This document shows positions 6,943 to 54,100 of a stretch of 64,000 bases of DNA, piece after piece. The stretch lies in contig SOIS01000073.1 in the NCBI GenBank assembly GCA_004375965.1, positions 14,802 to 78,801 on the forward strand, read 5' to 3'. The stretch comes from Candidatus Cloacimonadota bacterium (GTDB lineage Bacteria; Hydrothermota; E44-bin80). The stretch's first letter is position 1, and each line of letters begins with the position of its first letter. The notes beneath the pieces are model-generated. The model was not told the DNA's origin, searched no databases, and was given only the letters and a program-made list of their open reading frames with translations. Made by a program: the position numbers and the translations under genes.

Positions 6943-6947
6943 ATATA

Positions 6948-17441: not shown

Positions 17442-17537
17442 TCTGGTCTATACATAGTTTGACCGATGGTCACAGATAGCAGACTGCCGCGACCGCCAGT
17501 TGCATCACCATAGCAACGATCACAACACTATAGACGA

Positions 17538-33780: not shown

Positions 33781-35025
33781 TTACGGCATCAGGAACTCTT
33801 TTTCATAATCATCATTCCATTCGCCTCCGACACCATTTGGGTTTGGCGGTATATTGCCATCAAGGTACCAGCTACCGGGTGCTGCCTCTTTCACATCCTT
33901 GCTGACCCACAGCTTATACCAAGTTCCACTTACTGCATTCTCTAAAGTATAACGGAACCCTTTTCCATCATATTCATTAATTATGGAACCAACAAGGTTC
34001 TGTTTGGTTGCGTTATTAAAAACCTTAATGTTTGTTGTTGTGAATGTGGATGTATCCATATCATCATCAAATCTAACAACAAGTTCCTCTCCAGAAACAT
34101 AGGCAACGGATACCTGCGGAGGTTCACCATCGAGCAATGTATCTATTGCTTCAGTGATAAAATCCCAGGTATAATCAGGGATATTTGCTACCCAACCATC
34201 GTTTTCACCTACAAATCCAAGAAGAACATTTCCACATGTATCGAAAACACTTGCACATTCAACTGTAACGGTATACTGTGTTGCCTCGTCAAGCTTACTC
34301 CTTGGTTGGAAACTGACGTGATTCAAAGCTGCAGTAAGAAGGGTACAGGAGACAGATACCTGACTGGATGTCTTCATCAACGTGAAGTTGGTCAATGTCA
34401 GCGTAGTTGTATCAATATCACTATCCGTGAATAAAACAGCAATGGTCGGTAATGTATCAACACCATTCGTTGTGCCGGGGGTTACCCAATCTATCTCGGG
34501 ATGGACAAAATCAACGTCTCCAACATTCCCGGTCCCTGTATAGAGTCTATATCTGTAATCATCGTAAGGCGAGCCGTCAATTAATCCATTATCATTACCA
34601 TCCAGTTGAATACCTGCATTATTCTTTAGATCGCTTTTAAGTGTGACAACAAATACTGCATCATCACTGAATGTACCTCTGAAAACTGCCTTTTTTATCT
34701 CTGGATAGTATGTTAATGTTGCACCGGTTATTGAGGTACCATTTGTTGTATCCCTGACAATAATATTGGATGTATTAACTGTACTTGCATCCATAAAATC
34801 CAAAAAATAGATGATAATCTCGCCTGTTGAAGGGTCAACATCCACTATTTCCCCATCGATACCTGGATCTAAAGTAGTTGTATCGATAAAGGAAAGATTT
34901 TCCTGCGGCGTATCGTTGTATCCTCCTCTATTAGGATCGAAAGGATTATCCTCTTTACCACAACCAAAGATAAGCATAAGAGCAATAGCAATTATTACAA
35001 TAATCATCATTGTTTTCTTAAACAT
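33781..35025 (-). CDS. hypothetical lipoprotein (Thr/Asp-rich, Ig-like beta-rich)
   Basis: Signal peptide with lipobox-like IFGCG. Composition rich in T/D/G/V, typical of surface beta-sandwich domains. Confidence 0.5.
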   Translation of the reverse strand: MFKKTMMIIVIIAIALMLIFGCGKEDNPFDPNRGGYNDTPQENLSFIDTTTLDPGIDGEIVDVDPSTGEIIIYFLDFMDASTVNTSNIIVRDTTNGTSITGATLTYYPEIKKAVFRGTFSDDAVFVVTLKSDLKNNAGIQLDGNDNGLIDGSPYDDYRYRLYTGTGNVGDVDFVHPEIDWVTPGTTNGVDTLPTIAVLFTDSDIDTTTLTLTNFTLMKTSSQVSVSCTLLTAALNHVSFQPRSKLDEATQYTVTVECASVFDTCGNVLLGFVGENDGWVANIPDYTWDFITEAIDTLLDGEPPQVSVAYVSGEELVVRFDDDMDTSTFTTTNIKVFNNATKQNLVGSIINEYDGKGFRYTLENAVSGTWYKLWVSKDVKEAAPGSWYLDGNIPPNPNGVGGEWNDDYEKEFLMP

Positions 35026-35054
35026 CTTTTCACCTCCTTATAATCTTTTTATTA

Positions 35055-36770
35055 TTAAAACTTCAGCGTTGCGGATACCCTCCAGTTGGAGAGATCTGTT
35101 AGGTCTGAAAATCCCATCAAATCAATCTGAAGATTTTCACTAACTGTATACCCCAATCCGTACGTATAGGTAGTGTTACTGGAAGAAACGGTAATATCCT
35201 CAGATGAACCAATATCTTCAAGGTTTGGATTATCAATGAAAACATCAGTTACCGTTCCATCTCCACGTTCTGTATGTACAAGCCCAGGAGATGCATCAAT
35301 AAGATCCATATTCGTAGTCGTCTCGGTAAGGTTGATGGAATGTATTGCGCCAAGTCTGAAAACAAGGGGGTTTTTCACATTGAATTCCACACAGACAGGA
35401 AAACTGATACTATTCATTCCCTCTGTGGTCTTTGTCTGAACAGTACTGGAATATGTAGTAGTTTGCGTATAGTCATCGTTATCATTCGGTTCATTATCAC
35501 CATCATCGTATGCAAAGACAAACCTTGCATTCTCTGATTCAACCCTTGTAGAATCCATTCTACTTGAAAGCAAGCCTAATCCAAATGCAAATTTAACCTT
35601 TTCTGTAAGGTCATAGATAACCTTTCCCCTTACACTCACTGTCTGAGAGGAACCATCACCAGTTATCTCTATTGTTTCTGAACCGTTGGTTGCTTCTGTA
35701 TGGTTATCTGCTGCTATCCTACTTCCAATAATACTGTAGTAACCCCTTGCATCGTTCTCTATCTCAAAAGAACTTCTATTGTAAGAGGCGTCAAATCTCA
35801 GATGAGTTATTTCATTCCAGTCATGGATGTACGAGAGCCATCCGGTCATAGAATTTCCTTTATACGGTATATTATCTTCATATTCCTCTGTCATTGTATA
35901 CGTATCGGTGATGCTCGGATCGTCTGGACTACCGTTCCAGTTATCTGTTTTGTCCCTAACATCTTTGGAAGTACCTGAAAACATACCGTATCCAAAGTGC
36001 AGACCGAACGCCCTTGTTTCATTGAGATATTTCCAGAAGGATAGACCAAAGAGGTGTTCAATCATATCGTTGGTTGCTGAACCTGTCCCAACACGGCTCT
36101 CTGTGAATGTTCTATTACCAGATTCAAGATTGAAATCAGTAAAGTCAAACGTAAAGTTAACAGGCATACCCACAATATCGTAGCCATATTCTTCAGTATT
36201 GGTCGTATTTAACCTGTAGAAAAGACCCAGGAGTTTTCCATCTAAATCCTTGCCAAAGCCTAAAATAAAATCCTTGGTGCCCTCATCAGTCCAGGCCTCC
36301 CTTGTCTCCTCCACATCAGTCCTTCTATCGTATGTTCCGTTAGTGTCATCATCAAAAAATTCGGAATAGACAACATGACCGTAACCGTCTATGGGAAAAC
36401 CATCCATATCATCTAATCCTGTGTACAAGGCTTCTTTTTCATTGTATCTATCAATGACAATACCAAAGTGTCCCAAGTTGAAAAGCGGTGTTGTTGATCC
36501 ACCAATGAGGAAGTAGTTATTGGTGTAGTTGGAAAATGGTTCTTCGCCTTTATCCACAAGATTACTCAAGTTTGTATAAAGCCTTGACCCTTCAATCAGT
36601 GGTAAACGTGCAGGATCAGGGAGTGGGTAGGGACCAAGCCATAAATCATAATCATCTTCAAGAAGATAAGCAGTCGATGCATTTCTAAAGGATGTATTTG
36701 TGAATGCACCAAGCGAAATAACGGAAATAACTGTAAATAATAGGATTGTTGAAATAATCCTTCTTAACAT
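35055..36770 (-). CDS. probable outer-membrane beta-barrel protein
   Basis: Signal peptide, amphipathic beta pattern, C-terminal ...VSATLKF. Immediately upstream of the lipoprotein gene. Confidence 0.5.
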   Translation of the reverse strand: MLRRIISTILLFTVISVISLGAFTNTSFRNASTAYLLEDDYDLWLGPYPLPDPARLPLIEGSRLYTNLSNLVDKGEEPFSNYTNNYFLIGGSTTPLFNLGHFGIVIDRYNEKEALYTGLDDMDGFPIDGYGHVVYSEFFDDDTNGTYDRRTDVEETREAWTDEGTKDFILGFGKDLDGKLLGLFYRLNTTNTEEYGYDIVGMPVNFTFDFTDFNLESGNRTFTESRVGTGSATNDMIEHLFGLSFWKYLNETRAFGLHFGYGMFSGTSKDVRDKTDNWNGSPDDPSITDTYTMTEEYEDNIPYKGNSMTGWLSYIHDWNEITHLRFDASYNRSSFEIENDARGYYSIIGSRIAADNHTEATNGSETIEITGDGSSQTVSVRGKVIYDLTEKVKFAFGLGLLSSRMDSTRVESENARFVFAYDDGDNEPNDNDDYTQTTTYSSTVQTKTTEGMNSISFPVCVEFNVKNPLVFRLGAIHSINLTETTTNMDLIDASPGLVHTERGDGTVTDVFIDNPNLEDIGSSEDITVSSSNTTYTYGLGYTVSENLQIDLMGFSDLTDLSNWRVSATLKF

Positions 36771-38440: not shown

Positions 38441-39295
38441 TCATCTGACTTCTGTCCCTATTCTACCTGTTTTAATAAGTTTCTCCTTTGCAAGTTGAGA
38501 CCATCTATTATGAGGATTTTCTTTCACCATCTCTTTCCATATTCTCTTTGCCTTCACCTCATTACCTTTCCCATAAAATGATAGTGCTAAATAATGTTTT
38601 GCCTCAAAAAGATTTGGTCCTATCTCTAATGCCCTCTCAAAGAAATGGATTGCATCATTATACATATTCCTTTCAAAATATATCAATCCAAGATAATAGT
38701 TTGCGTAGAGTGAAGCACTCGCATCCTTACCTGTTTTTATTACCTTTGAAAGGTGTTCTATCGCCTCTCCAAAAATCTTTTTCTTGTAGCAAATATATCC
38801 AAGATTATTTCTTGCCATCTCATCAGTTGGATGTATATTCAGAACTTTCTGGTAGAGAAGTAATGCATTATCAAATTTTTCTGTGTACATATATGCCCAC
38901 CCAAGGAGTTTCAAGACCTTCACATTGTTTGGAGCTTTCTTCAGAGCAGGCTCAAGAACCTTCTCTGCCTCAGCATAATCACCGGAGGCAATGAAATTCC
39001 ACCCTTTATCAATCAATGTTAAAATATCTGTTTTTGATATGCTCATTGATTGTACAAAACCTTTGAGTATCTCTTCTTTTTTTTGTTCTACTACTTTTTC
39101 CTTCTCATTAAGATATTCTTCCATTTTTTTCTCTATACGTTTGAGTCTCTCCCTGTAACTTTTTACAATATTATAAACATATTCGACCTTCTCAGCATAG
39201 AGTGAAGGTTTGTCACCAGATTTTGCTTCTTTAAGTTTTTCTTTGAGTTCGAGTATCAGTTTCTCAAAATTATCCATATTTTTTTCTTCCATCAT
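38441..39295 (-). CDS. TPR-repeat protein
   Basis: Coiled-coil N-terminus then multiple TPR repeats. Start overlaps cheB stop by 4 nt. Confidence 0.6.
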   Translation of the reverse strand: MMEEKNMDNFEKLILELKEKLKEAKSGDKPSLYAEKVEYVYNIVKSYRERLKRIEKKMEEYLNEKEKVVEQKKEEILKGFVQSMSISKTDILTLIDKGWNFIASGDYAEAEKVLEPALKKAPNNVKVLKLLGWAYMYTEKFDNALLLYQKVLNIHPTDEMARNNLGYICYKKKIFGEAIEHLSKVIKTGKDASASLYANYYLGLIYFERNMYNDAIHFFERALEIGPNLFEAKHYLALSFYGKGNEVKAKRIWKEMVKENPHNRWSQLAKEKLIKTGRIGTEVR

Positions 39296-40320
39296 CTTGT
39301 GAAATCTATTATCTCTTTTGCAATTTCACAAAGTGGAACAACTTTATCTACATAACCCGTCTTAATCGCTGCCTTGGGCATACCGAAAATTACAGATGTT
39401 GATGCATCTTCAACAATAACCTTACCTTTTGATTTTTTTACTTCGAATAAACCATCAGAGCCATCCTTGCCCATACCTGTAAGAACAACTGCAAGAACCC
39501 TATCGCCAAAACTTGCAAGAGACTTCAAGGTTATATCACAGGACGGTCTAACACCATGTTTTTTTGGTTTATTTGTTAAGAGAATCTTCCCATTCTGAGT
39601 AACTTCCATATGTTTATCGCCTGGTGCAACGTAAACCTTGCCCTCCTTTAACAACTCACCACCATTTGCTTCTTTAACATCGAGAGGTGAAATTTTATTA
39701 AGTCTTTCAGCAAGTAAAGGTGTAAATTGCTCTGGCATATGTTGAATAATAAGGATACAAGCATTCAGATTCTTAGGTAAGACTGAGAGGACAACACTGA
39801 GTGCTCGTGGTCCTCCTGTTGAAGTACATATTATGATAATCCTTCTATTAGAGCGAGATGGAGTATACTCAAAAGTACAAGCCTCATATTGCGGAAGACA
39901 TGTTAACTTCTCCCTTCTTATTGCTGAGGCACGAATAATCTTCTCAATAAGTTCTTTTCTAACTTCTCTCATATTAACCGAGATACTACCAGAAGGTTTT
40001 GAAACAAAATCAACAGCGCCAAGATTAAGTGCCTCAATGGTTTCTCTTGCACCGTCTTTTGTGTAAGCACTGAGCATCACAACAGGAACGGGGTGGACCC
40101 TCATGATGTTTTTTAAGAAATCAATTCCATTCATCACAGGCATTTCCATATCAAGAGTAACCACATCAGGATTTAGCGAAATAATTTTTTCTATACCCTC
40201 TTTGCCATCTCTTGCAGAGCCGATAACCTGTAACCTTGGGTCACTGTTAAGCATATCAGTTATGACATTTATCATTAGTATTGAATCCTCTATGATAATG
40301 ACGCGGATTTGTTTAGTCAA
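39292..40320 (-). CDS. cheB: chemotaxis response regulator protein-glutamate methylesterase
   Basis: REC domain (IIIEDS...DVVTLDMEMPVMNG) plus methylesterase domain (TSTGGPRAL, HMPEQFT). Confidence 0.85.
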   Translation of the reverse strand: MTKQIRVIIIEDSILMINVITDMLNSDPRLQVIGSARDGKEGIEKIISLNPDVVTLDMEMPVMNGIDFLKNIMRVHPVPVVMLSAYTKDGARETIEALNLGAVDFVSKPSGSISVNMREVRKELIEKIIRASAIRREKLTCLPQYEACTFEYTPSRSNRRIIIICTSTGGPRALSVVLSVLPKNLNACILIIQHMPEQFTPLLAERLNKISPLDVKEANGGELLKEGKVYVAPGDKHMEVTQNGKILLTNKPKKHGVRPSCDITLKSLASFGDRVLAVVLTGMGKDGSDGLFEVKKSKGKVIVEDASTSVIFGMPKAAIKTGYVDKVVPLCEIAKEIIDFTR

Positions 40321-40799
40321 ATCTCTTTGATCCCTTTCTTATATGACTTGACAACGACCTTACCGTTGGACAGATGGAAATCAACCGACCTACCCCAGCT
40401 TCCACCTGTATCCTTTGATAGCACACTTATTGAATGCTTTTTAAGAACCTCTATAGCAGCATTGACATTCTTCTGTCCGATTGAATTCTTAGTAAGCGTT
40501 GGGAACATGTTTGCACCGCCAACAAGTTTTGCAATGAGTCTTTCCTTCTTTGCACCCAAATCTTTAATCCTTTTGATAAGAATCTCAATCCCCGTGTCAG
40601 AAAATTTTGCAAGGTTTTCGTCACTTTTAGCAATTGACCTTGTGGGTAGAAGGAAATGATTCATTCCACCAATCTTCGTAAGAGGGTCATATAACATCAC
40701 AGCCACACATGAGCCTAATCCGTATGTACTTAGAATATAAGGACTTGAGCCTACTGCAATATCAGCTATCCTAACCTTTATTGTTTGAGTATTTAACAC
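40317..40799 (-). CDS. cheD: chemoreceptor glutamine deamidase CheD
   Basis: YGLGSCVAVMLYD...GGMNHFLLP. Confidence 0.8.
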   Translation of the reverse strand: MLNTQTIKVRIADIAVGSSPYILSTYGLGSCVAVMLYDPLTKIGGMNHFLLPTRSIAKSDENLAKFSDTGIEILIKRIKDLGAKKERLIAKLVGGANMFPTLTKNSIGQKNVNAAIEVLKKHSISVLSKDTGGSWGRSVDFHLSNGKVVVKSYKKGIKEI

Positions 40800-41596
40800 T
40801 TTCTATAAATCCTTTCCCGTGAATCAACTGTATTGAACAGTGATTTCGCTTCACCAACAAGGTATTCCACCTTTCCAAGAACTAAGAATGCTTTTTCGTT
40901 TAATCTATTGTAAATCATTGATAGGATTTTCTCCTGAAAAGTCTTCTCCATATAAATAAGTACATTTCTGAAAAGGACAAGGTCCAGCTCTTTTAATTCT
41001 ATATTTTCTTCTTCAATATCAAACCTTACAAATCTTACCTTCTCTTTTATCTTATCCAAAACACAAATCTTCTCATCTTTCTTAAAATACATATTAAGAA
41101 AATATTCTGGTGTTTCGTCAAAGACCTCATTTCTATAGCATCCAATTCGAGCAGTATTCAAGCTATCATTATCTATATCTGTTCCTATTACAGAAAATTG
41201 TGCAGATGATTGCCTTTCACTTAAAAACTTATCCAGAAGCATTGCAATAGTATAGCTTTCTTGTCCCGTAGCACATCCCGCACACCATACCTTAATTAAT
41301 CCACCTTTCCTTTCATTTTCTCTTAATATCTGAGGTAGAACAACCTCTTCAATTTTTCCAAAAGTTTCATAATTTCTAAAGAATTTTGAAACATTAATGG
41401 TAAGGGTTTTATGTAATAAACGTTGTTCTTTTGTATCCCGTTCAAGTAGTTTTGCATATTCAAGATATGAGTTTATTCTATTATATCTCATTCTAACCGC
41501 AATTCTTCTTTTTAGTGGTCTCTTTTTATATCTTTCCGGAAAGAAACCAAGTTTTTCAATCATCATCCTTTTTAATACCTCAAACTCTTCGTTCAT
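40793..41596 (-). CDS. cheR: chemotaxis protein methyltransferase CheR
   Basis: VWCAGCATGQESYTIAMLL (SAM-binding) and C-terminal VLFRNVLIY. Confidence 0.85.
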   Translation of the reverse strand: MNEEFEVLKRMMIEKLGFFPERYKKRPLKRRIAVRMRYNRINSYLEYAKLLERDTKEQRLLHKTLTINVSKFFRNYETFGKIEEVVLPQILRENERKGGLIKVWCAGCATGQESYTIAMLLDKFLSERQSSAQFSVIGTDIDNDSLNTARIGCYRNEVFDETPEYFLNMYFKKDEKICVLDKIKEKVRFVRFDIEEENIELKELDLVLFRNVLIYMEKTFQEKILSMIYNRLNEKAFLVLGKVEYLVGEAKSLFNTVDSRERIYRKC

Positions 41597-41708
41597 TGAA
41601 CTAAAACATTCTTAAATTAACAAAACTGAGAGGTTAGACGCACTCACTTCAAGCACAAAGCATTAAATTCCAGAGAGGTTGTCCATCATCACTCTTCTTT
41701 CAACCCTA

Positions 41709-43283
41709 TCACTCACCTACCATCTCTATGTTCCTCTTTGCAATTTCATTCTGAGGATCGATTTCTAATGTTTTCTTCCATTGTTCAAGTGCCCTCACCT
41801 TCTGCCCCATCTTATAATAGATGTTTCCCATTTTAAGAAATATCTCCGCATTGCCGAGACCAGCATCTGTAATCATCTTAAAGGATTTCTGTGCTGAAGT
41901 GTATACTCCTTTTCTGTAATATAATTCACCGAGTCTTATTCGTGGTTCTATGTAATTGGGTGCCAAGTCAAGGGCTTTCTTATAATTTTCTTCTGCCTCC
42001 TCAAAATTTCCCACATTCTCTGTTATAACGCCCAGATTATAATAAAGTACTGGTATATCTGGTTCTTTTTTCATGATATACTTAATCTCACTGATTGCAT
42101 TTTTAAGATTCCCTGAAAGTACATTAATTAGTGCAAGAAAGAAATGGGGTAAAATCAGCTTATCATCTATCTTGAGTGCTTTTTCAAGATAATCCTTTGA
42201 GGCATTAAGGTCACCTTTCTTGAAAAGAATAATAGCCATATTTAATATAGGAATTCCTGATGACTTCATTTTCGATGCTTGCTTAAAAAACTCAAGTGCC
42301 TCATCTGTCCGATCCTTAACGCTGAGTATGTATCCAAGATTATTCATATACATTGGAACATCGGGGTTTTCTTTAATAAGTTTACGAAGCAGTTCTTCTG
42401 CTTCCTTATAATTCTTTGTCTTAATAAGAGTGACGGAGAGATAAAATCTTGCTTCATTATCTTTAGGATTTAACTTAATAATATGTTTGAATTCCCGCTC
42501 TGCCTCATCATAGAGTTGGGTTTTTAAGAATGCTATACCGAGATTTAGATGCTCTGTTATCTTTTCATCAATCCCAAGAGCAGCGATTCTTTCTATAATA
42601 GAACAGAATCCTCTCTGTACAAACGATGATACAATCTCTTTTGTTTCAAATGTATCAAAAGGAGAGAATTCAATAATAACCTCGAGTGTCTTCTCTCCGT
42701 CAATCAAAGAATAAACCTTTCTATCCTTCTCATTAAGACTTAAAATGTCATCATGGGACGCAGTTGGTTTTAGAATAGATGATTCCCTAAGAATATCAAG
42801 AGAAAATACTAAAAGTTCATCTACGTGTCTCGCACTCTCTAAGAGAAGACTCGCTGGATTAACTGCAACAATCTCATCATCAACATCTGCAAACCGTGGT
42901 TCAAAATTAAAGTAACCGTTTTCCCAGGTCATCATTGTAATAATTGTCTCCTTTATCTGGCGCCTTAAGTACTTAATAAGAGAATCTTCTCTAACAAATT
43001 TTTCTTTTAATAAGATTTTTCCTATCTTTTCACCAGTTCTCTTCTGCATCTCAAGTGCCCCGGAAAGCTGTTCTTCGGTCATCTCACCGGAAGCAACCAG
43101 AAGTTCGCCTATTCTGTTCTTTCTATTTATTAAATAACTATCAACGATGTTACCCTTAAAAAATGTAATAGAACCAAAATGTTCCTTTTCTGTTACTGTT
43201 AAAATACCTGTTTTAAGACCCATAGAAAGAAGTTGTATTACATCCGGAAGGCTTGCCTCTTTGAATGATCCTTTTATCGCCAT
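41709..43283 (-). CDS. DUF4388-like domain plus TPR-repeat protein
   Basis: N-terminus GSFKEASLPDVIQLLSMGLKTGILTV and SLIDGEKTLEVII. C-terminal half has about 7 TPR repeats. Confidence 0.6.
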   Translation of the reverse strand: MAIKGSFKEASLPDVIQLLSMGLKTGILTVTEKEHFGSITFFKGNIVDSYLINRKNRIGELLVASGEMTEEQLSGALEMQKRTGEKIGKILLKEKFVREDSLIKYLRRQIKETIITMMTWENGYFNFEPRFADVDDEIVAVNPASLLLESARHVDELLVFSLDILRESSILKPTASHDDILSLNEKDRKVYSLIDGEKTLEVIIEFSPFDTFETKEIVSSFVQRGFCSIIERIAALGIDEKITEHLNLGIAFLKTQLYDEAEREFKHIIKLNPKDNEARFYLSVTLIKTKNYKEAEELLRKLIKENPDVPMYMNNLGYILSVKDRTDEALEFFKQASKMKSSGIPILNMAIILFKKGDLNASKDYLEKALKIDDKLILPHFFLALINVLSGNLKNAISEIKYIMKKEPDIPVLYYNLGVITENVGNFEEAEENYKKALDLAPNYIEPRIRLGELYYRKGVYTSAQKSFKMITDAGLGNAEIFLKMGNIYYKMGQKVRALEQWKKTLEIDPQNEIAKRNIEMVGE

Positions 43284-43322
43284 TATATCATCTCAGTTTT
43301 AATCTTATTTATCCTCAGATAT

Positions 43323-45251
43323 TCACTCAAGATTATGGTCTTCAAAAATTCTTTCATTCAGGTATGGCCATCTTTGGTCAAGTTCAGAAAGTAATGTCTT
43401 CTCTTCCGTAGTTGATGGAACCTTTGGCTTTTCTTTTTTTCTCAGTTTCTTTTGCTTCTCAAGTACAAGTTTTTCAATACCAATACAAGCTGAAATGTTT
43501 TCCATTGTGAGTTCAAGATTCTCATCTATAACTTTCTTAATGATATTTGCCACACTTCTTTTTATATCTATGAACTTTCCAAAAAGATTTTTGCTAAGGA
43601 ATTCCTTTATTTCATCCGGTAAAGAAATCCGTTTACAAGTAAAAAGGCTAGTGATTATTACCCTCTTATCTTCTTCATCGAGTTGTTTAATTGGAACTAC
43701 AGTTCCTGATAATAAGAGCTCTTTATAATTATCTTCCAAATCTAACTCTTCTGGTGGTAACTTGGACGACACAACTAAGAGTTTTTTCTCCTCCTTAAAA
43801 TTGTCCAGAACAACAACAAAAAGTGATTTAGACTCCCCATCATTTACTACATTCTCAATATCATCTAAGAGGATGGTATCAATCCCCTTTAGTTTTTCAA
43901 TATACATATTTCTGGCATCTTCATCAAAAAGGTTTTTTATCTCAATTGTTAAAAAATTTGATGGAATATAGGTAATTATTTTCTCTGGATATAATGATTG
44001 CATCTTTTTAGTAAAAGCTATTAAAAGGTGTGTTTTCCCACATCCATCGTCTCCATAAATATAAATAGGGGAATTTACATCTTGTTTCTTTGATAGTCCC
44101 TTTTTCAAAACCTCATATACTTCTCTATTAGAATGTAAGATAACAAAGTTTTCAGTGGTTGACCTTGCACTAAGGAATTTATTATATTCTTCCTTTAATT
44201 TCCTTCTTTCCTCTACTTTTTTGAGTGTCCTTTCTATGTCAAAAATAGCATCCGGGTCAAAAAGATTCTTTTCTAAATATTCCCTTTCTTCCAGAGTAGT
44301 TGTCTTCTCCAACTCACCAAATATTTTCTGTAGTTCAATGAGTCTTTGAATACCCGATGTAAATGAGACAAACGCTTGTATTATACCATCTATGGGTCCA
44401 TCCATAGCTTCTTCTAATCTTCTTACATTAAACCCTTTCATTTTCCAGATATAAAGTTTTAACATGTATTCATTTTTTATTGCCATCGTGTCCTTTTGCT
44501 CAGTTGCGCCTTTATCAAAATCTTCTTTTAAATCCTTGACAAAATCAAAAAATTCCTTATCCTCCCCGGGAAATGGGGCTAACCTCCTGTCGGGTGGGAC
44601 TATCTCCTCCAGAGCAATATTATCCTTCACATTCTCAACTGTGATTTCCTTTGTAACATCTTTAAGAAGGTCAATCTTTTTAAGGACAGTCTCTATCTCC
44701 CTGATATCATAAAAAGGTAAACCAGAAAGGAAATGTATTACATCATCCTTCAACTCCATTCCAAAATCACTACTTATCATTTTGAATATCCTGGAAACAA
44801 GTTCTGGGTCAGGTTTAAATATCGGAACTGTAAGTCCTTTCTTAATAAGAGAAACAAGCTGTTCAGATATGCCGAGTTCTTCCGGTGGGAGCAGAGATGT
44901 TATATAAACCTGTTTTTTTGCTGTAATAAAAGAATTAATGAAAGTATATAAATCCATACCCTTCTTTACCTCATCAGGCAAAAGATGGAGGTTTTCAAGG
45001 ATAAAGACAGAACCAACAGTCTTTGGAATGGATTTAAGTTCAGTACAATCTAAACAGAGAACATCCTCATCTTTAAGAATCTCTTTTACCGAACTTACAA
45101 GATGAGTTTTTCCAAGTCCTTTCTTTGAATAAATAAATAGTGGGTTTATATCGACCCCACGATTTTTTAGTGTTCTTTTCACAGAAAGGTATGCAAGTTG
45201 ATTTGCTCTACCAATTGCAAAATTGTTAAAAGTGTATTTTCTGGCTATCAT
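43323..45251 (-). CDS. tandem DnaA-type AAA+ ATPase protein (two DnaA domain-III-like modules, no DnaA domain IV)
   Basis: Module 1: YTFNNFAIGRANQLAY...NPLFIYSKKGLGKTHL...KQVYITS...GLTVPIFKPDPE. Module 2: SPIYIYGDDGCGKTHLL...ILLDDIENV...KKLLVVSSKLPPEEL...GTVVPIKQLDEE...ISLPDEIKEFLS. Confidence 0.6.
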   Translation of the reverse strand: MIARKYTFNNFAIGRANQLAYLSVKRTLKNRGVDINPLFIYSKKGLGKTHLVSSVKEILKDEDVLCLDCTELKSIPKTVGSVFILENLHLLPDEVKKGMDLYTFINSFITAKKQVYITSLLPPEELGISEQLVSLIKKGLTVPIFKPDPELVSRIFKMISSDFGMELKDDVIHFLSGLPFYDIREIETVLKKIDLLKDVTKEITVENVKDNIALEEIVPPDRRLAPFPGEDKEFFDFVKDLKEDFDKGATEQKDTMAIKNEYMLKLYIWKMKGFNVRRLEEAMDGPIDGIIQAFVSFTSGIQRLIELQKIFGELEKTTTLEEREYLEKNLFDPDAIFDIERTLKKVEERRKLKEEYNKFLSARSTTENFVILHSNREVYEVLKKGLSKKQDVNSPIYIYGDDGCGKTHLLIAFTKKMQSLYPEKIITYIPSNFLTIEIKNLFDEDARNMYIEKLKGIDTILLDDIENVVNDGESKSLFVVVLDNFKEEKKLLVVSSKLPPEELDLEDNYKELLLSGTVVPIKQLDEEDKRVIITSLFTCKRISLPDEIKEFLSKNLFGKFIDIKRSVANIIKKVIDENLELTMENISACIGIEKLVLEKQKKLRKKEKPKVPSTTEEKTLLSELDQRWPYLNERIFEDHNLE

Positions 45252-45438
45252 TTGGTAAATTTCTTTCTCAGATTTGAAAGGACTAAACTTACCATCATTT
45301 CGGAGGCATCTATTAAACCCTCACTTTGTGTGTGTAGAAGGAAGTATTAGGTTTGTTGTTTCCCAAAACTAACCGGTACGTAGTAAACTATTTTACAGAT
45401 TATTTTCCTTGTTGCATACTTTGTTAAAGCCATCTTGG

Positions 45439-46776
45439 TTACAGCATTTCATCTACGAGACCTGTATGGATGTTTCCTTTAATAAAATCTTTGTTTTCGA
45501 GTAACTTCAGGTGGAAAGGTATCGTTGTTTTAATTCCTTCAATTACAAATTCTTTTAATGCTCTGCGTAGGCGAGTAATAGCCTCCTCTCTGTTATTTCC
45601 ATAGGATATCAATTTTGCAATAAGCGAGTCATAATACCTTGGGATAGAATAACCAGAGTAAAGATGTGTATCAACCCTTACGCCTGGGCCACCAGGTATA
45701 TGAAACCCATCAATCCTTCCTAAAGATGGTAAGAAATTTTTTTGAGGATCCTCTGAGTTTATTCTTGCCTCTATAGCACATCCTCTCAATTTAATATCCT
45801 TTTGCGAAAAGGGTAGTTTTTCGCCCGACGCAATCTTTATCTGTTCCTTAACCAGATCTATACCTGTGACAAACTCTGTAACTGGATGCTCAACCTGTAT
45901 CCTTGTGTTCATTTCCATGAAGTAGAAATTCCCTTTTTGATCCATTATGAACTCGACGGTCCCAGCATTTTTATATCCTATCTTCTCCATTCCTTTAACA
46001 GCATATGCCCCTAACTTTTTCCTCTTCTTCTCACCAACAGCTGTTGATGGACTCTCTTCAAGTAACTTCTGATGCCTTCTCTGTACCGAACATTCTCTTT
46101 CTCCGAGATGAACTGTATTTCCATAATTATCTGCTAAGATCTGAAACTCAATGTGTCTTGGATTTTTAATGAACTTTTCTATGTAAAGACTCCCATTACC
46201 GAAAGCTGCTTCTGCTTCAGTACGTGCTATCTTAAAAAAATTTTTGAATTCAGATTCAGCGTTAACAATTCTCATGCCCTTACCACCACCACCAAAAGCA
46301 GCTTTTATTATAACAGGGAAACCAATATCTTTAGAAATCTTCAGTCCTTCACTTATCTGTGAAACGGACTTCTTGCTTCCTGGGATGACAGGAATACCAG
46401 CATCTTCCATTTCCTTTTTGGCACAAACCTTATCACCCATTTTTCTAATAATTTCGAAAGGAGGACCTATAAATTCTATGCCATTTGATTCACACATTTC
46501 AGCGAATTGGGGATTTTCAGCAAGGAACCCATACCCAGGATGGATTGCCTCACAGTTTGTAACAAGACAGGCACTAATTATCTCTTTTGCACTGAGATAA
46601 CTATCTTGGCTTTGAGGTGGTCCAATACAGACAGATTGGTCTGAGAAACGTACATGAAGCGAATCTTCGTCTGCCTCTGAATGAACAGAAACAGTCTCTA
46701 TACCAAGTTCCTGACAGGCTCTTATTATCCTTAGAGCAATCTCTCCTCTGTTTGCAATAAGAACCCTTTTGAACAT
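45439..46776 (-). CDS. accC: acetyl-CoA carboxylase biotin carboxylase subunit
   Basis: [22 protein letters not shown]-grasp motifs, [14 protein letters not shown]. Confidence 0.9.
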
Positions 46777-46781
46777 TCAAA

Positions 46782-47888
46782 CTATCCTCTACCTTCAAAA
46801 TCTGTCCAACCTGCTTCTGAAGTACCTTTTATTCCTCGTAATTTGAGGTTAAATTCATCAGGATTAGTAACATTTGCCATTGCATCTTCATAGCTAATTA
46901 CACCTTCGCTGTATAATTTCATTATTGACTGGTCAAAACTTTGCATATGATACTGTGAGCCTTCCTCAATCGCAGTAGGAATCAGTAGTGTTTTAACTGG
47001 ATCAAGGATATACTCCTTTATGGTCGGTGTTACAATCATTATTTCAACAGCAGGTACTCTGCCTTTCTCATCTGCTCTTGCAAGGAGTCTTAAGGAGATA
47101 ACCCCAATCATTGTTGCGGAGAGAAGAACCCTTATATGCTGCTGTTGATGTGGTGGATAAAAGGAAATAATTCTATTTATTGTCTCGCTTGCATTCAATG
47201 TATGAAGTGTACTTAAAACCAGGTGCCCTGTATCTGCTGCTTTCAATGCAACATCCATAGTATCCTTATCCCTGATCTCACCAATAAGAATCACATCAGG
47301 ATCCTGACGCATAACATGTTTTAGCGCATTTGCAAAACTATGAGTATCCATCCCAAGTTCTCTCTGGCTGATAACGCTCTTTTTATCCCTGAACAGAAAT
47401 TCAATGGGGTCTTCAATGGTAATGACATTTTTACTTATATTCTCATTGATATGTTCAATCATTGCAGCAAGGGTTGTTGACTTTCCACTTCCTGTGGTTC
47501 CTGTACAGAGGATCAATCCTCTGTGCTTCAGCGCAATATCTTTGAGAACCTGGGGAACATTAAGTTCATCTATTCTTTTTATAGAAGGTGGAATCGTTCT
47601 CATAGCAATGGCAACACTTCCCCTCTGCATATAGACATTTACCCTGAAACGGGCAAGCCCTGAAACACCAATAGCAAAGTCAAGCTCCTTCGTTCGTATA
47701 AATTCCTCCTGCTGGTCTTTCGTCATAATCTGTTGTGCTGTTTTTCTTAATTCTTCAGGGCTTAAAGGCTCTTCTTTGATAACCCTCAACTTTCCATCAA
47801 TTCTCAGAACAGGAGGAGAACCAGCCTTCAGATGAAGATCGCTTGATTCCTCTTTAACCATCCTTTCTAAAAGATTTTTTAGATTCAT
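46782..47888 (-). CDS. pilT: type IV pilus retraction (twitching motility) ATPase PilT
   Basis: GLILCTGTTGSGKSTTLAAMIEHIN (Walker A), FRVNVYMQRGSVAIAMRTIP. Confidence 0.85.
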   Translation of the reverse strand: MNLKNLLERMVKEESSDLHLKAGSPPVLRIDGKLRVIKEEPLSPEELRKTAQQIMTKDQQEEFIRTKELDFAIGVSGLARFRVNVYMQRGSVAIAMRTIPPSIKRIDELNVPQVLKDIALKHRGLILCTGTTGSGKSTTLAAMIEHINENISKNVITIEDPIEFLFRDKKSVISQRELGMDTHSFANALKHVMRQDPDVILIGEIRDKDTMDVALKAADTGHLVLSTLHTLNASETINRIISFYPPHQQQHIRVLLSATMIGVISLRLLARADEKGRVPAVEIMIVTPTIKEYILDPVKTLLIPTAIEEGSQYHMQSFDQSIMKLYSEGVISYEDAMANVTNPDEFNLKLRGIKGTSEAGWTDFEGRG

Positions 47889-47898
47889 AATATATTCT

Positions 47899-48339
47899 TT
47901 ATTCTGGTTTAACTAATAAAAGCTTCTGATTAAATTCTACAGGGTCATCATTCTTTGCAAGAATATCCACAATAGTCCCCCTCACGTCAGATTCTATCTC
48001 ATTCATTATCTTCATTGCTTCAACTATACATACAATCTGACCTGGAACAATACGGTCTCCAATCTCTACATACGGAGGAGCATCAGGCGCTGGTGCTTTA
48101 TAAAAAGTCCCTACCATCGGAGCCTGAATTGCGACAACCCCTGTCATCTCGCTTTTTTCCTCAATCTTCGTTTCTTCTGCTAAATCCTGAACTGGGTTTT
48201 TTGTCGCCCTGGGTACTTCCTTTATCTTTTTTGATTCCTTTCTGATTCGTATGGATGTTCCTAATCTCCTTATTTCAATCTCTTCGACATCCATCTCTTC
48301 AATAAGTTCAATAAGCTTTTTAATGAATGAGATTTTCAT
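47899..48339 (-). CDS. accB: biotin carboxyl carrier protein
   Basis: C-terminal biotinyl domain with EAMKIMNEIESD. Confidence 0.8.
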   Translation of the reverse strand: MKISFIKKLIELIEEMDVEEIEIRRLGTSIRIRKESKKIKEVPRATKNPVQDLAEETKIEEKSEMTGVVAIQAPMVGTFYKAPAPDAPPYVEIGDRIVPGQIVCIVEAMKIMNEIESDVRGTIVDILAKNDDPVEFNQKLLLVKPE

Positions 48340-48623
48340 AAAAGACCTTCTTTAAAAATGTGCTTTGTTAATCTCATAATTTCCATCCTGTTCAAACCTG
48401 GACACAGGATATTTTACTTTTAAATATACTACTATAATACATAATAAAAGTCAAGAGAAAACTGCGTAGAAAAGTATTTGCTTCACCACAAAAACTTTGA
48501 CCATCCTTTTCTAATATGTTTCTGAGCATATGACGATCAGAAAGTGTATCTAATATGATTAAAATCCTTATTTATCATTTTTTGATACTTTTGCAATGTT
48601 TAAAAGAATATGATGTTCTGCTT

Positions 48624-50858
48624 TCAAATCAATTCAAACTCAAACCCTCTCTCCTTGAAGATTATTAAGCAAGCATCTACCACCTCAGGAGCATAAAGTA
48701 TACCCCGATTCTCTGAGATTTCTTCCAATGCGGTATTTATGCTGTAAGCCGGGCGGTATGGGCGGTGTGAAGACATTGCTTCAACAACATCTGCCACTGC
48801 CAGGATTTTTGCTTCCACAAGAATTTCATCTCCACTTAGACCCTGAGGATACCCAGACCCATCCAACCTTTCATGATGTTGTAACACGGTTTGAGCGACT
48901 GGCGAAGAAAATTCTACTGTTTTCAAAATGTCATACCCAACCTGAGCGTGAGTCTTGACTAATACCATTTCTATTTCGCTCAGTTTAATAGGTTTGTTGA
49001 GAATCTCGGCTGCAATATGTACCTTGCCAATATCGTGCAGTATACCCGCTACACGAATCCCCTCAATTTTCTCCTCAGAAAGCCCCATCTCTTTTGCTAT
49101 AGCACAGGCAAGCTGGGTCACACGCCGTTGATGACCTGCTGTATAAAGATCCCTCTTTTCGACAGTCGATGCCAGGGCATTAACCGTTCCCTCAAGGGTT
49201 CTTTGTAATTTCCAAAAACTTCGTTTCAGTTCTTCCTCCGCCCGCTTGCGCTCAGTGATATCCTTCATCGTTCCCATACTTGCTATCTTACCTCTATAAT
49301 TGATAACTCCGACATTCATATTGACTATGACTCTGGTTACCCTATCCTTGTGTAACATGCAGAATTCGTATTCACGTGGGATATCTTCCCCTGCCTGCCT
49401 TCGATGGTAGCGATCTGCAACCATCTCTGAATCCTCTGGTGCAATGAGTTCTCGAAAGTCCATCCCAATAATCTCCTCCACCGTGTAGCCAACCATTCTT
49501 GCAAATGCCTCATTGGCAAATTTCATTTCAGCATCCTGGATAATAAAGACACCGTCCTGAATATTGTCAATTAATGTTCGATATTTTTCTTCAGAGAGTC
49601 GCAGCGCTTCCGCTGCCCTTTTCTGCTCAGTTATGTCCATTACCATCCCGATGGTTCCCTGGAACTCCTTTTTATCATTTATCCAAGGAGTAGCGGAAAC
49701 CCTTATGTTTCTTAGTTCACCGTCTTTTCGCCTCATTACTGTTTCATATTGACTGGAAACTCTGTTTTTCCTTTTAGCAGATCCCTGTAATATTTTTTGG
49801 AGTTCTTCTTCCGAAGAGATCAATTCCCGCAGATTCATACCAATAATTTCTTCTTGGGAATAGCCAAGAATATTAGAAAACCAGGGATTGGCAAAAATAA
49901 TATTCTCATTGGTGTCCACAATACACATACCTTCCTGAATAGTTTCCACCAAAGAGCGGTATCGTCTTTCGCTTTCCCGCAAAGCCTCCTTCGCTTGCTT
50001 CCTCTCTGTAATATCTCCCAAAACACCATCAAAGTATAGTATTTCTCCCTTCTCGTCGGCAATAGCCCGAGCGTTTAGGGAGCCCCAGAAAACCGTCCCG
50101 TCCTTTCTCTTCAACTGAACCTCATAATTGGAGATCTCGCCAGACGAACTTAACGTTTTAATGAACCTCTTACGGTCATCCGGGTTGAGATAGAGATCGC
50201 CGACATGAACTTTGGACATCGCCTCTGGTTTCTTATATCCGAACATCTTAGCCAGGGCTGGATTCGCCGAAAGGATACGTCCACCAGGGTTTGCTGAAGT
50301 ACGGAACACCCCGACTGGAATGTTGGACTGTAGTGTCCGATATTGCTTTTCCGACTCACGTAGCGCCTTCTCCGCCTTTTCTCGCTCGCTGATGTCCCTG
50401 CAAATAACCCGCAACTCTTTCGGTTCACCATCTTCATCAAAAATCAGTTGGGTTCTTCCCTGTACCCAGATAGTTGAACCATCTTTCCGTACCTTGTGAA
50501 ATTCCAATGCACTTTTCTTTAGTTTTTTACTAAAGATTTCGGAAATCTGCTTTTTAACCCTTTTTAAATTATCATTATGTACAATTTTCCACACAGGTTC
50601 ACCGATTAATTCCTCTTTGCTGTATCCCAGATATTCTGCACCGTACTGATTGACAGATGTCATCGTTCCATCTGGTTTGATGGAGAAATACATATCTGGA
50701 GCATGATCGTATAAATCTTGATATTGTTCCTCTCTCTTCTTTAGTGCTTTCTCAGCCCGCTTGCGATCGGTTTCTAATTTTTCAAATTCAGCAACTCTTC
50801 GGCGCGCTTCTACCAATTCATTTATGAGTTGCTCTTTTGTTTTGTTTTTGTCTTTCAT
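48624..50858 (-). CDS. multi-PAS HD-GYP domain protein (probable c-di-GMP phosphodiesterase)
   Basis: N-terminal coiled coil, about four PAS repeats, then HQRRVT...ILHDIGK...HHERLDGSGYP. Confidence 0.8.
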   Translation of the reverse strand: MKDKNKTKEQLINELVEARRRVAEFEKLETDRKRAEKALKKREEQYQDLYDHAPDMYFSIKPDGTMTSVNQYGAEYLGYSKEELIGEPVWKIVHNDNLKRVKKQISEIFSKKLKKSALEFHKVRKDGSTIWVQGRTQLIFDEDGEPKELRVICRDISEREKAEKALRESEKQYRTLQSNIPVGVFRTSANPGGRILSANPALAKMFGYKKPEAMSKVHVGDLYLNPDDRKRFIKTLSSSGEISNYEVQLKRKDGTVFWGSLNARAIADEKGEILYFDGVLGDITERKQAKEALRESERRYRSLVETIQEGMCIVDTNENIIFANPWFSNILGYSQEEIIGMNLRELISSEEELQKILQGSAKRKNRVSSQYETVMRRKDGELRNIRVSATPWINDKKEFQGTIGMVMDITEQKRAAEALRLSEEKYRTLIDNIQDGVFIIQDAEMKFANEAFARMVGYTVEEIIGMDFRELIAPEDSEMVADRYHRRQAGEDIPREYEFCMLHKDRVTRVIVNMNVGVINYRGKIASMGTMKDITERKRAEEELKRSFWKLQRTLEGTVNALASTVEKRDLYTAGHQRRVTQLACAIAKEMGLSEEKIEGIRVAGILHDIGKVHIAAEILNKPIKLSEIEMVLVKTHAQVGYDILKTVEFSSPVAQTVLQHHERLDGSGYPQGLSGDEILVEAKILAVADVVEAMSSHRPYRPAYSINTALEEISENRGILYAPEVVDACLIIFKERGFEFELI

Positions 50859-51111: not shown

Positions 51112-54100
51112 ATGGAAAGAAAGATAAACGAAACGGGTCTTTTTGAAGGAAAAATAAAAACCATCCTCGGATTATTGAAACAACATAACGATACTATATT
51201 GAGAAATAATACTGAACTCGTCTCACTGTTAAAGAGGAGAGAAACCGCTCTTCGTAACCTGACAGAGGGTGAATATTCAATATCAGAAAATCTTGATAGT
51301 ATGAGAAAGGAGACCCATAATCTGTTTGCATCTACCCAGATAATCTCTGAAGCAACAGAAGTTGCCCTATCTGCACTTGAAGAACAAAAAAAGACCTGGG
51401 AAACAAAGTACTCCAATCTCGATAACGCTACAACAGGTTTCAGTAGAATAATTGGAACAATCTCAGAATCAATCTACAGCCTGAGAGAACTTGGTGAAAG
51501 AATAAGAAAGATAGAAATTGCTATGGATAAAATACATAATATTTCACATCTAACCCGCGGTGTTTCAAGGAATGCAGGGATTAAAGCATATCATGCTGGA
51601 GAAAAGGGCAAGGGTTTCGAAGTAATAGCAAGGGAGCTATCACAGTTAACCAAAGAATCACAAAGAATTACTGTTACGGTGCCAGAAGCGATAAAAAGAT
51701 TTCAAACCCAAACAAAGGAAGCAGTGAATTTTATAACACAACTAACACACAATATTGAACTGGTAAAGAAAAATACAGAAGATATGAAACTGAAACTTAA
51801 ATCAAGCGAACAGTTCTTAAGCGAGTTTATGGAGGTCTCCAACATAATCCATAACTCTGTTGATAAGCAGGTAGGAGTAGAAGAGGAATTAGGAAGGGAA
51901 GAAGAAACTATTTCAAAATTCTCTACGCAGTTGTTGATTGAAACAGGAAGTATCACAGCTCTTGAGCAGAGCCAGAGTTCCCTTTCACTTATTATTAATA
52001 AATTTGTAGAAAACTCTTCTCAAATCATATCTTCCCTTGAGCAAAAGGGGGATGAGTCCTTCGATGTCAATATAAGAAAATCTTCAATAAATAATGATAA
52101 ACTAAAAGAATATATGCTCAGAGTATCTTCATTGACATCCCAGATAAAAGAGATCTCACTTGAGGCAAAGAGGCACTTTGAATCACAGAAGGAGACGGTA
52201 TCACAGTTTCTTACCATAATAAATGAAAACAAGATGGTTAAGCAAGAAATCAGCAAGAAAACCAACTCATTAATGGAAATATTAAAAGAGGTCACGAAAC
52301 TCTTTTTAGAAACAAATGATCTGTCAGAGAAAATAATTTCAATCATAAATGAAATGATACATCTTGTTGAAAGGACAGACAGTTATTTTTCTTCCCTTGA
52401 AAAAGAGATAGAGTGGGTAGTTGAAATAGTCAGGAAACTCAAGAAATTCTCTAAAAGAAGTAATCTTCTTTCCCTCTATGCATCAATAGAGACGGCAAGA
52501 TCCTTTGAATTTAAGAAAGAACTCGATGTGATTGTAAATCAGATAAAAGAATTATCAAAACAGTCATCCAGTTTATTGAGAACAATAGAGGAATCCGTTA
52601 ATAAGGCAAAATCTTCACTTAAAAATGTTCATAAGATTATGCTCGAGACCTCTGAAAAACTTGAAAATACCAAAGATGAATTCAAACCTATGCTTAAAGA
52701 GTTTCATAATCTTATTGAGTCAACTGAGAAACTGAATGAAATAGTTAATGAGATGCTGAATGCCCTTGAGAAACAAAAAGGTCTTGAACAAAATCTTATC
52801 TCTCTCGAGGAAACACTCTCCTCAAAGATAGACGAAAATATACTCATGAACAGAGAACTGGGGAAGGTAACGGAGAAAACAAGCTCAGTTGTATCAGAAC
52901 TATTAAATGAACTCGGGGAATTTGAGAAGGATTTAACTCCTTTTTTACCTTCTATTCAGAAATTGCCAAAAACAGTCTTAAGGCTGAGATTATCTGGAGA
53001 CATTATTGATATTGACCCATCCAAAACAACTGATGCAACATCCAACAGAGTCAGCACAACTATCTTTAAGGGTCTTGTTGAACAGGGCATTGATGCAAAT
53101 GTTATTCCCTCAATTGCAAGAAGGTGGAAACTCTCTGAGGATGGGCTTGTATGGAAATTTACATTACGAGACGACGTACGGTTTCATAATGGAGAAGCAC
53201 TCAATGCGAGCGATGTGAAGTTTACAATTGAACATCTTCTTTCAGGCCCACACAGTTATATGTTTGATATGATAAAAGGAGCAAAGGATTTCATAAGAAA
53301 TAAGAACAAGGATATAGAAGGAATAAAGATTACTGGTAATTACAACATTGAACTAAAACTAAACCATCCCTATATTCCATTTCTGAGAAATCTTGGGGTT
53401 ACCTGTGGAGGTATTGCAAAGGAGACAAAAAATGGACTTATCGGTGCCGGCCCATTTAGGTTAAAGAAATGGGAAAAAGGAAATAGAATTATTCTTGAAG
53501 CATTTGATGATTACTTTGGTAAAAAACCGTACTGTGATGAGATACATTTCATTATCTGTCATGATGAGAAAGAGACGTTTAAAAGATTTTCAGAAGGAGA
53601 ATTTGACATAATAGATATTCCCAGTTCAATCGAAAAAGGAGAATTGCTACAGAAAAAAGAAGTAAATGAAATCAACATAGATTCTTTATTTATCTATGAT
53701 ATTTATTATGTTGGTATTAATGTAAAACTACAAACCCCTTTCAAAGAAAATATGGTCAGACAAGCATTGAACTATGCTGTTGACAGAAATGAGTATATTG
53801 AAAAAATTGCACAGGATAGAGGCATACCTGCAAAGGGCATCTTTCCCCCAAATTTTTCTACATATAATAAGGCACTTACTGGATACGAGTATAACCCTGA
53901 GAGAGCAAAAACATTATTAAAAAATGCTGGTTTCCCCAATGGTTTACCAGAGGAATACCAATTTGACATCAGGGATTCAAAGACTGCAGTCATGGGTGCA
54001 GAAATCTTAAAAAAATATCTCTCAGAAATTGGCATACATTTGAAACTCAATCTACTCCCCTGGAAAGAATTACTCAGAAATGTTCATAGCGGTAAATCCT

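Follow-up and report, generated by a model that had tools for sequence, protein, structure and literature searches.

A chemosensory gene string of a Candidatus Cloacimonadota bacterium as the probable adaptation-and-output half of a Che-MglA cell-polarity supermodule

The F9-class chemosensory system, represented by cluster I of Vibrio cholerae and its protein DosM, relies on a receptor with a double signalling domain, and 'partial F9' sets without cheA and cheY have been documented in other bacteria (PMC7534058, PMC9321776). Such partial sets comprise a receptor and cheBR, and they have been proposed to borrow the kinase of another system (PMC9321776). In Myxococcus xanthus, the Frz system acts on the MglA/MglB polarity module (PMC3441718, PMC4316618), and MglA/MglB genes were reported earlier near PATAN genes (PMC4316618). 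PATAN domains bind PilB1 and PilC in Synechocystis and are sufficient to switch pilus polarity (bioRxiv 10.1101/2021.06.11.447907). Here we analyse a 64,000-nucleotide stretch of contig SOIS01000073.1 from a Candidatus Cloacimonadota bacterium (hereafter the window), which carries at 38441-45251 a string of six genes encoding a tandem DnaA-like AAA+ protein, a PATAN/DUF4388-TPR protein, CheR, CheD, CheB and a TPR protein. This locus is probably the adaptation-and-output half of a chemosensory/cell-polarity supermodule of Fibrobacteres-Chlorobi-Bacteroidetes (FCB)-group bacteria, the kinase half being unlinked here but probably present in the genome. The full supermodule combines a Che pathway, MglA with Roadblock/MglB-like proteins, TPR and PATAN proteins and a tandem AAA+ protein derived from DnaA and Hda. 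In this lineage the half that we describe is separated from the kinase genes and partly eroded.

The six genes are chained on the minus strand, as a preliminary description of this sequence had stated. The overlaps amount to 7 nt between cheR and cheD and 4 nt each for cheD/cheB and cheB/TPR, and gaps of 39 and 112 nt separate the PATAN-TPR gene from the ATPase gene and from cheR, respectively. Domains were assigned by a Pfam scan that covered every window open reading frame (ORF) of at least 100 aa. The ATPase (43323-45251, 642 aa) contains two Bac_DnaA AAA+ stretches, and the PATAN-TPR protein (41709-43283, 524 aa) joins a DUF4388/PatA_N domain (PF14332) to TPRs. They are followed by the methyltransferase CheR (40793-41596; CheR_N and CheR, E = 1.8e-45), the deamidase CheD (40317-40799; PF03975), the methylesterase CheB with its phosphorylatable receiver domain (39292-40320; Response_reg and CheB_methylest) and a protein matching TPR families (38441-39295), whose gene is translationally coupled to cheB. 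All six ORFs are intact.

Distant homologs of the ATPase, with 21-25% identity, are abundant in Gemmatimonadota. Species-representative genomes yielded 80 loci, of which 78 are of Gemmatimonadota type (most are so labelled, a few are unlabelled bins), including L076 from a metagenome-assembled genome (MAG) labelled Gemmatimonas aurantiaca. Mapping by phmmer revealed in most of these 78 loci a nearly invariant cluster of about 20 genes, present in 70+ Gemmatimonadota genomes, which starts with CheW-CheY-CheA-CheC-TPR(~895 aa)-PATAN-TPR/Roadblock-Roadblock-Roadblock-GTPase-tandem ATPase and continues with PATAN-TPR-CheR-CheD-CheB-CheW-CheW-TPR-peptidase-TPR; one of the Roadblock proteins weakly matches MglB. 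The window genes are one-to-one orthologs of the central block of this cluster as found in L006, with E values of 1e-81 for PATAN-TPR, 1e-68 for CheB, 1e-54 for the TPR protein (TPR287), which is the ortholog of the TPR gene closing the cluster, 1e-46 for CheR, 1e-35 for the ATPase and 1e-27 for CheD. Since each of the six has its ortholog in the middle of a complete Che system, the locus represents, at the evolutionary level, a split of a fuller system. This is the scenario that the preliminary description had named as contrary to its own proposal of a self-contained modification system acting on a non-canonical substrate; that proposal is not supported, and its more general view of a Che-like pathway of non-flagellar type is right. 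Six other Gemmatimonadota loci (L018, L023, L034, L050, L022 and L061) show the order TPR-PATAN-Roadblock-MglA-tandem ATPase-PATAN-TPR without CheR, CheD and CheB, the longer ones also without kinase genes. The occurrence of such loci indicates that the GTPase/AAA+/PATAN core can exist without a Che pathway.

An exact match to the window ATPase is found in only one public run assembly, and the bacteria whose homologs are 50-65% identical to it are uncultivated and carry the label WOR-3 or Cloacimonadota. Eight window-type loci, whose ATPases are 44-66% identical, share an identical synteny with the six ORFs intact in every one. Their common order is a divergent receptor gene, accB, pilT, accC, a GTPase gene of about 200 codons, the ATPase gene, PATAN-TPR, cheR, cheD, cheB and TPR, followed by a nitrilase-type gene, an outer-membrane beta-barrel gene and a Big_5 lipoprotein gene. 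DUF4388 thus co-occurs with cheB, cheR and cheD in these eight loci as well as in the Gemmatimonadota clusters, an association that had been put forward as a check. In the window, accC (45439-46776), pilT (46782-47888) and accB (47899-48339) lie on the same strand as the six genes. The pilT product is a type IVa pilus retraction ATPase of the PilT/PilU family (TIGR01420, 469 bits against a cut-off of 319), and its gene, nested between accB and accC with gaps of 10 and 5 nt, occupies this place in all window-type loci. Because accB, pilT and accC share the strand of the six genes at these short distances, the string is probably longer than six genes and these three probably belong to the same transcription unit. 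A promoter and terminator scan gave no more sites than shuffled sequence did and so marks no operon boundaries. Across the clade, PilT is the best-conserved protein of the string (89-95% identity), AccC is 76-88% identical, and the ATPase evolves fastest; AccC identity is a clade marker to be used with caution, as the L090 copy may be a paralog. In the pair of loci without intact mglA (see below), gene identities are 66-78%, which, measured against accC, is not below the level of pairs that bear mglA. There is no relaxation of constraint in these two lineages.

The gene divergent from this string (51112-54429, plus strand) encodes a 1105-aa fusion of two MCPsignal stretches and an SBP_bac_5 domain of the DppA/OppA/NikA-like type. 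Neither this protein nor any of its homologs has a transmembrane segment or a signal peptide. In the AlphaFold2 (AF2) model, which has a predicted local distance difference test score (pLDDT) of 76, helices span residues 7-161, 163-286, 291-463 and 465-611 and precede the SBP fold; these four helices of about 125-175 residues, with turns at residues 162 and 464, form a double hairpin. The receptor family is narrow. Its two tip motifs (residues ~152-179 and ~452-485) are invariant in 16 sequences, including the CheA-linked, 30%-identical homolog P0139. The gene occupies the same place in all six loci that reach far enough upstream (L001, L002, L003, L008, L087 and L088). Orthologs in other WOR-3 genomes are 28-30% identical over about 1000 aa (E = 1e-119 to 1e-131), and in L089, L092 (a complete 2.85-Mb WOR-3 genome, CP070664.1) and L093 the receptor gene immediately precedes CheW-CheY-CheA-CheC-TPR(~794 aa)-TPR/Roadblock-Roadblock. 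The CheA, CheC, CheY and TPR794 proteins of these receptor operons are in turn orthologous to the left arm of the Gemmatimonadota cluster (E = 4e-89, 1e-58, 5e-49 and 8e-73, respectively). As its orthologs head CheW-CheY-CheA-CheC operons, we regard the fusion as the cognate receptor of the module, and it is the likely substrate of CheR, CheD and CheB. The preliminary description had singled it out as a candidate substrate, and the kinase-operon orthologs and the synteny bear this out. The suggested check for methylation sites had a different outcome: no match to the consensus [ASTG][ASTG]xx[EQ][EQ]xx[ASTG][ASTG] is conserved in the protein. Of two conserved half-sites, the one at residues 285-290 (EQSQSS) was rejected as a methylation site, for in the AF2 model it links one hairpin to the other.

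Two further observations concern the L092 genome. Its accC ortholog (17177-18613) is split into ORFs of 88 and 318 aa by a frameshift or as a pseudogene, and lies convergent to the receptor-kinase operon and beside a PAS gene, in a faint echo of the window order. No close tandem-ATPase homolog from this genome was found among the best 120 ATPase matches.

The genes that follow the receptor in other WOR-3 genomes are absent here. With the Pfam scan of ORFs of at least 100 aa, we found no CheA (Hpt, H-kinase_dim and HATPase_c with CheW), CheW, single-domain CheY, second MCP or membrane MCP in the window, so that of a complete Che pathway only the MCP and CheR, CheB and CheD are present above the Pfam cut-offs. 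Searches by phmmer and tblastn with the related CheW, CheY, CheA and CheC of L092 and L006 matched only the CheB receiver (REC) domain and one weak 26-aa stretch in the window; the CheA queries matched nothing in it by either method. The statement in the preliminary description that these 64 kb hold no CheA, CheW, CheY or canonical transmembrane MCP is therefore confirmed. The weak stretch (48473-48550), just downstream of an HD-GYP gene, is 54% identical to the N-terminus of L092 CheY (E = 1e-4); it is too short to be trusted as a relic of a REC domain. Four CheA-family clusters (P0139, P0242, P0214 and P0208) all have as context the receptor-linked kinase arm of other WOR-3 lineages, and none of them could be tied to the clade of the window. 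The context of P0028, where the right arm of those WOR-3 lineages was sought, is another Gemmatimonadota-type cluster.

The enzymes that remain are well preserved. CheB was aligned to 6ymz and 1a2o, and its receiver quintet and Ser-His-Asp triad are invariant in 9/9 window-type orthologs. CheD matches 2f9z (E = 9e-32) and keeps the Cys of GLGSCVAV and the His of NHFLLP. CheR, CheD and CheB keep all their catalytic residues. The residues kept by CheB and CheD, together with identities that are not lowered when scaled to accC, indicate that the module is under selection.

In the PATAN-TPR protein, residues 4-156 match the 122-position PF14332 model (E = 1.4e-28), which implies that the PATAN domain carries a helical insert. 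This insert contains a c-di-GMP (cyclic di-GMP) motif (NF053729, residues 57-109, 55.5 bits against a cut-off of 38), predicted to be an MshEN-like tandem of the 24-residue pattern RLGxx(L/V/I)(L/V/I)xxG..L...L..Q, with the sequence RIGELLVASGEMTEEQLSGALEMQ-KRTGE-KIGKILLKEKFVREDSLIKYLRRQ. The second copy has K in place of R and no central G. A single copy of the motif is found in 81/81 orthologs of the WOR-3 and Gemmatimonadota types, and the tandem in 68/81. The PATAN-TPR protein is likely the output or adaptor protein of the module and, by analogy with the PATAN regulators of pili, control of type IV pili is its probable output.

In the relatives L002, L003, L004, L008 and L088, an intact GTPase gene lies between accC and the ATPase gene. 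Its product is a true MglA, which matches Myxococcus MglA (6h17) over its full length (E = 2e-71) and has the TVPGQ switch II. The window retains only a relic of about 180 nt (45257-45433, minus strand), in which no intact P-loop MglA with TVPGQ remains. The 187-nt spacer before the ATPase gene encodes MALTKYATRKIICKIVYYVPVSFGK. By tblastn, 45433-45359 matches residues 7-31 of the L003 GTPase (68% identity, E = 1e-5); the P-loop GPGRSGK has become VPVSFGK, and a stop follows four codons past the aligned stretch. The segment 45328-45257 weakly resembles GTPase residues 178-201 (37% over 24 aa, E = 0.64), and matches the L088 GTPase with E = 4e-6 when the search is confined to the 206-nt gap. 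About 145 codons are missing between the N- and C-terminal matches. A larger mglA pseudogene occurs in L087 (65% ATPase identity; 6818-7135), with two in-frame stops, a 21-codon deletion and a frameshift, and L088, at 63% ATPase identity, keeps the gene. Since the lesions in L087 and in the window differ, MglA was lost recently or repeatedly in this sub-lineage.

Erosion also affects the tandem AAA+ protein. Its first module is very similar to DnaA domain III (8bv3, E = 4e-85 in a profile search against the PDB; Foldseek TMt 0.89 with a root-mean-square deviation (rmsd) of 2.3), and its second module matches Hda structures (E = 1e-17 in the same profile search). The AF2 model (pLDDT 82) connects them by a well-predicted helical linker of about 100 residues (251-357) and leaves the C-terminus (599-642) disordered. 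Foldseek also returned p97-type double AAA+ proteins, at rmsd values above 20 Å; these matches reflect only the presence of two AAA+ modules and were discarded. No Bac_DnaA_C (domain IV) or DnaA_N (domain I) match was found by Pfam, and the score against the DnaA initiator profile TIGR00362 is 208 bits, below its cut-off of 344. All catalytic motifs are canonical in both modules of the Gemmatimonadota proteins. In the clade of the window, both modules retain Walker A, but Walker B of module 1 reads E-N (E in 18/19 and N in 17/19 sequences). At the box VII arginine positions, module 1 has K/Q and L and module 2 has D/K and I/L, and T/I/S stand in place of the sensor II Arg of module 2. These replacements suggest that a switch driven by ATP has turned into a scaffold that binds nucleotide. 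The tail of the protein (43323-43450, residues ~600-642) contains a W..R.(I/F)E motif common to both phyla (W628, R634 and E637, within DxRWPxLxERIFED here) and may serve to dock the protein to one of the TPR proteins.

Several neighbouring features bear on the same network. Between the receptor gene and accB lies a minus-strand gene (48624-50858) encoding four PAS domains and an HD-GYP domain of the c-di-GMP phosphodiesterase type. Receptor gene and accB are 2772 nt apart here but 190-221 nt apart in L002, L003, L087 and L088, and some 200 nt apart in five relatives overall, and by this comparison the gene is an insertion specific to this lineage; a link to the module would run through the c-di-GMP motif of the PATAN-TPR protein. 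The second of the two HD-GYP genes of the window, a GAF-HD-GYP gene (2113-3738), is about 2 kb from a second PATAN gene (5944-6942, minus strand), which is preceded by the gene of a 698-aa TPR protein (6948-9044). The order and strand of this second pair (5944-9044) match U895-PATAN384 of the full cluster, and phmmer relates PATAN332 to L006 PATAN384 (7e-25) and TPR698 to a U895-like protein of L005 (1e-16). The pair is possibly, at low confidence, a dispersed counterpart of the TPR895-PATAN384 pair, and with the GAF-HD-GYP gene it may form dispersed parts of the same network. Downstream of the module, in the 33781-36770 region, a gene for a 571-aa protein of the outer-membrane beta-barrel type, which has a signal peptide and ends in Phe, lies beside that of a Big_5 lipoprotein; this pair is also found after the tandem ATPase in L005 (15200-18710), a 'Gemmatimonadetes' MAG locus without che genes. 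Further away, at 29662-31329, a 555-aa bifunctional formiminotransferase-cyclodeaminase (FTCD_N, FTCD and FTCD_C) is encoded, a fused architecture better known from animals.

Taken as half of a supermodule, the locus would work as follows. The SBP domain would bind a cytoplasmic small ligand. From family membership, orthology and synteny, CheD would deamidate the receptor coiled coil, and CheR and CheB would methylate and demethylate it. The PATAN-TPR protein, the small TPR protein and the non-hydrolysing AAA+ scaffold would read or organise the receptor complex, integrate c-di-GMP and, as the analogy with PilB- and PilC-binding PATAN regulators suggests, act on the motor of type IV pili; pilT is encoded in the same string. 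The kinase half (CheW-CheY-CheA-CheC with TPR/Roadblock proteins), which directly follows the receptor in other WOR-3, is absent from this locus, where mglA has also decayed. Elsewhere in the genome there would still be a phosphodonor, most probably CheA with CheW at an unlinked place. That a phosphodonor still exists is suggested by the invariance of the CheB phospho-acceptor site and of both receptor tips, and the unlinked kinase is likely but unproven.

Some of our data weigh against this scheme. Judging by the longest contig listed for each cluster of matches, the longest contigs of window type (387, 239, 80, 73 and 71 kb) seem to carry no CheA-family match, and the window holds none, so that we can only infer that this genome encodes a kinase. 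Type IV pili as the output are drawn from gene adjacency and analogy only. The receptor has no conserved strict methylation consensus and a single conserved half-site, SALEEQ (87-92). Finally, the mglA pseudogenes of the window and L087 and the lost catalytic residues of the AAA+ protein could signal an ongoing loss of function. The contig data also suit the view that CheA, CheW and CheY are truly lost, the modification state of the receptor and c-di-GMP being read directly by the PATAN-TPR, TPR and pseudo-AAA+ proteins with no phosphorelay to CheY; CheB would then be phosphorylated by acetyl phosphate or a non-Che kinase, or work at a basal rate. Partial F9 sets offer a precedent (PMC9321776), the CheW-to-Roadblock genes are missing and have left no relics in the window, and mglA too was discarded while the six genes stayed intact and constrained. 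We nevertheless find this view unlikely, as the CheB receiver quintet is invariant, both tips, which in canonical MCPs are the CheA/CheW-binding region, do not vary even against a CheA-linked homolog, and the sequence inspected is only a fraction of any genome of the clade. A bolder proposal goes further, making the tandem AAA+ and the c-di-GMP-binding PATAN-TPR protein core parts of an undescribed class of hard-wired Che-MglA/MglB systems, whose half in the window works alone, without CheA, CheY, MglA or ATP hydrolysis, with methylation state and c-di-GMP steering type IV pili; we hold it to be doubtful.

Erosion could alternatively mean that the module, split from its kinase arm, is non-functional and disappearing, with early stages of this loss seen in the mglA relic and in the degenerate AAA+ protein. 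The differing mglA lesions, an AAA+ protein deprived of arginine fingers, sensor II arginines and the module-1 Walker B, and the fast evolution of its gene would fit such decay. It is however very improbable, given that the six ORFs remain intact in 8/8 loci at about 50% ATPase divergence, that CheB and CheD keep their catalytic residues, and that the mglA-less pair, at identities of 70-78%, shows no drop once scaled to accC. Moreover, the clade conserves the AAA+ motifs in their degenerate form, which points to a stable new state and not to drift. We give still less credit to the idea that the MCP/SBP fusion is a mere neighbour and that the enzymes act on a non-MCP substrate, for example the adjacent TPR, PATAN or AAA+ proteins. 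The missing methylation consensus, the translational coupling of cheB to the TPR gene, and the Gemmatimonadota clusters, which carry CheR, CheD and CheB with no MCP gene within 10 kb, speak in its favour. Yet CheR, CheD and CheB are ordinary family members, closest to the enzymes of complete Che systems, the receptor is syntenic with the module in all loci reaching far enough and with the kinase arm in other WOR-3, and methylation-site motifs are loose outside enterics. A half-module with an unlinked kinase therefore remains our preferred explanation.

This finding is less exotic than a stand-alone modification system, and points to a larger undescribed one. Each of its elements is of a known kind: Che adaptation enzymes, a DosM-like receptor, MglA, PATAN, an MshEN motif and the DnaA/Hda fold. 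The coupling of a Che pathway to an MglA switch and to a pilus motor is known mechanistically only in Myxococcus, and in part. Here, two phyla conserve a physical linkage of Che, MglA/MglB, PATAN, TPR and DnaA-like AAA+ genes. New players are nominated as well: the fusion of DnaA domain III and Hda, an initiator module re-used in signalling, a PATAN-TPR adaptor with a c-di-GMP motif and a sensor-bearing DosM-like receptor. The loci form a reduction series, from the full cluster through the loss of linkage to the kinase arm and the loss of MglA to that of the ATPase catalytic residues, which shows the parts that are kept together under selection. A literature search on the cluster, on a DnaA-like protein with MglA and on WOR-3 chemotaxis returned nothing specific; no description was found of the combined cluster, of a DnaA-III/Hda fusion as a signalling component, of a sensor-bearing double-hairpin receptor or of the reduction series. 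Gemmatimonas aurantiaca has a cultured type strain, and if that strain also carries the cluster, the system is open to experiment.

Among the described systems, the F9 class resembles the locus in its cytoplasmic receptor with two MCP signalling hairpins in one chain, a tandem arrangement borne out here by the two MCPsignal stretches, the two tips and the AF2 helices. CheR and CheB genes belong to both clusters, and relatives of the window carry several CheWs. The window differs in having no concatenated triple CheW (CheW3), the CheWs of its relatives being single-domain proteins of 138-161 aa, and in the large SBP_bac_5 sensor of its receptor, whereas 98% of DosM homologs lack a sensor domain. 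The full cluster also adds MglA/MglB-type, PATAN, TPR and DnaA-like AAA+ genes, which are absent from F9.

The likeness to Frz lies in a receptor that is cytoplasmic, as is FrzCD, and in a Che pathway tied to a true MglA ortholog (a match at the 62% identity level, E = 2e-71) and to Roadblock/MglB-like proteins. Large TPR proteins recall the MglA effector SgmX, and type IV pili are the likely target. In Myxococcus, mglBA is not linked to frz, whereas in Gemmatimonadota a single physical cluster brings together the Che, Mgl, PATAN and AAA+ genes; it includes CheD and CheC but no regulator of the FrzZ or RomR type. The window itself has mglA only as a pseudogene and carries neither the kinase genes nor those of MglB.

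The window PATAN-TPR protein shares with known PATAN regulators an N-terminal PATAN/DUF4388 domain, a gene placed with chemosensory genes and a helical insert related to the N-terminus of PilB/GspE-type ATPases. Its insert, however, matches the MshEN-type c-di-GMP motif, and the partner domain is TPR instead of a receiver, which implies that it is not controlled by phosphorylation of the same chain. As for the AAA+ protein, module 1 is very close to DnaA domain III and module 2 is Hda-like, and in the Gemmatimonadota copies both modules retain Walker A and B, the sensors I and II and the box VII arginines; the clade of the window has replaced the arginine fingers, the sensor II arginines and the module-1 Walker B. 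Unlike DnaA and Hda, the two modules are fused through a helical domain, without DnaA domain I or the DNA-binding domain IV, and end in a conserved disordered W..R.(I/F)E tail, and their gene resides in a signalling cluster, not at the origin.

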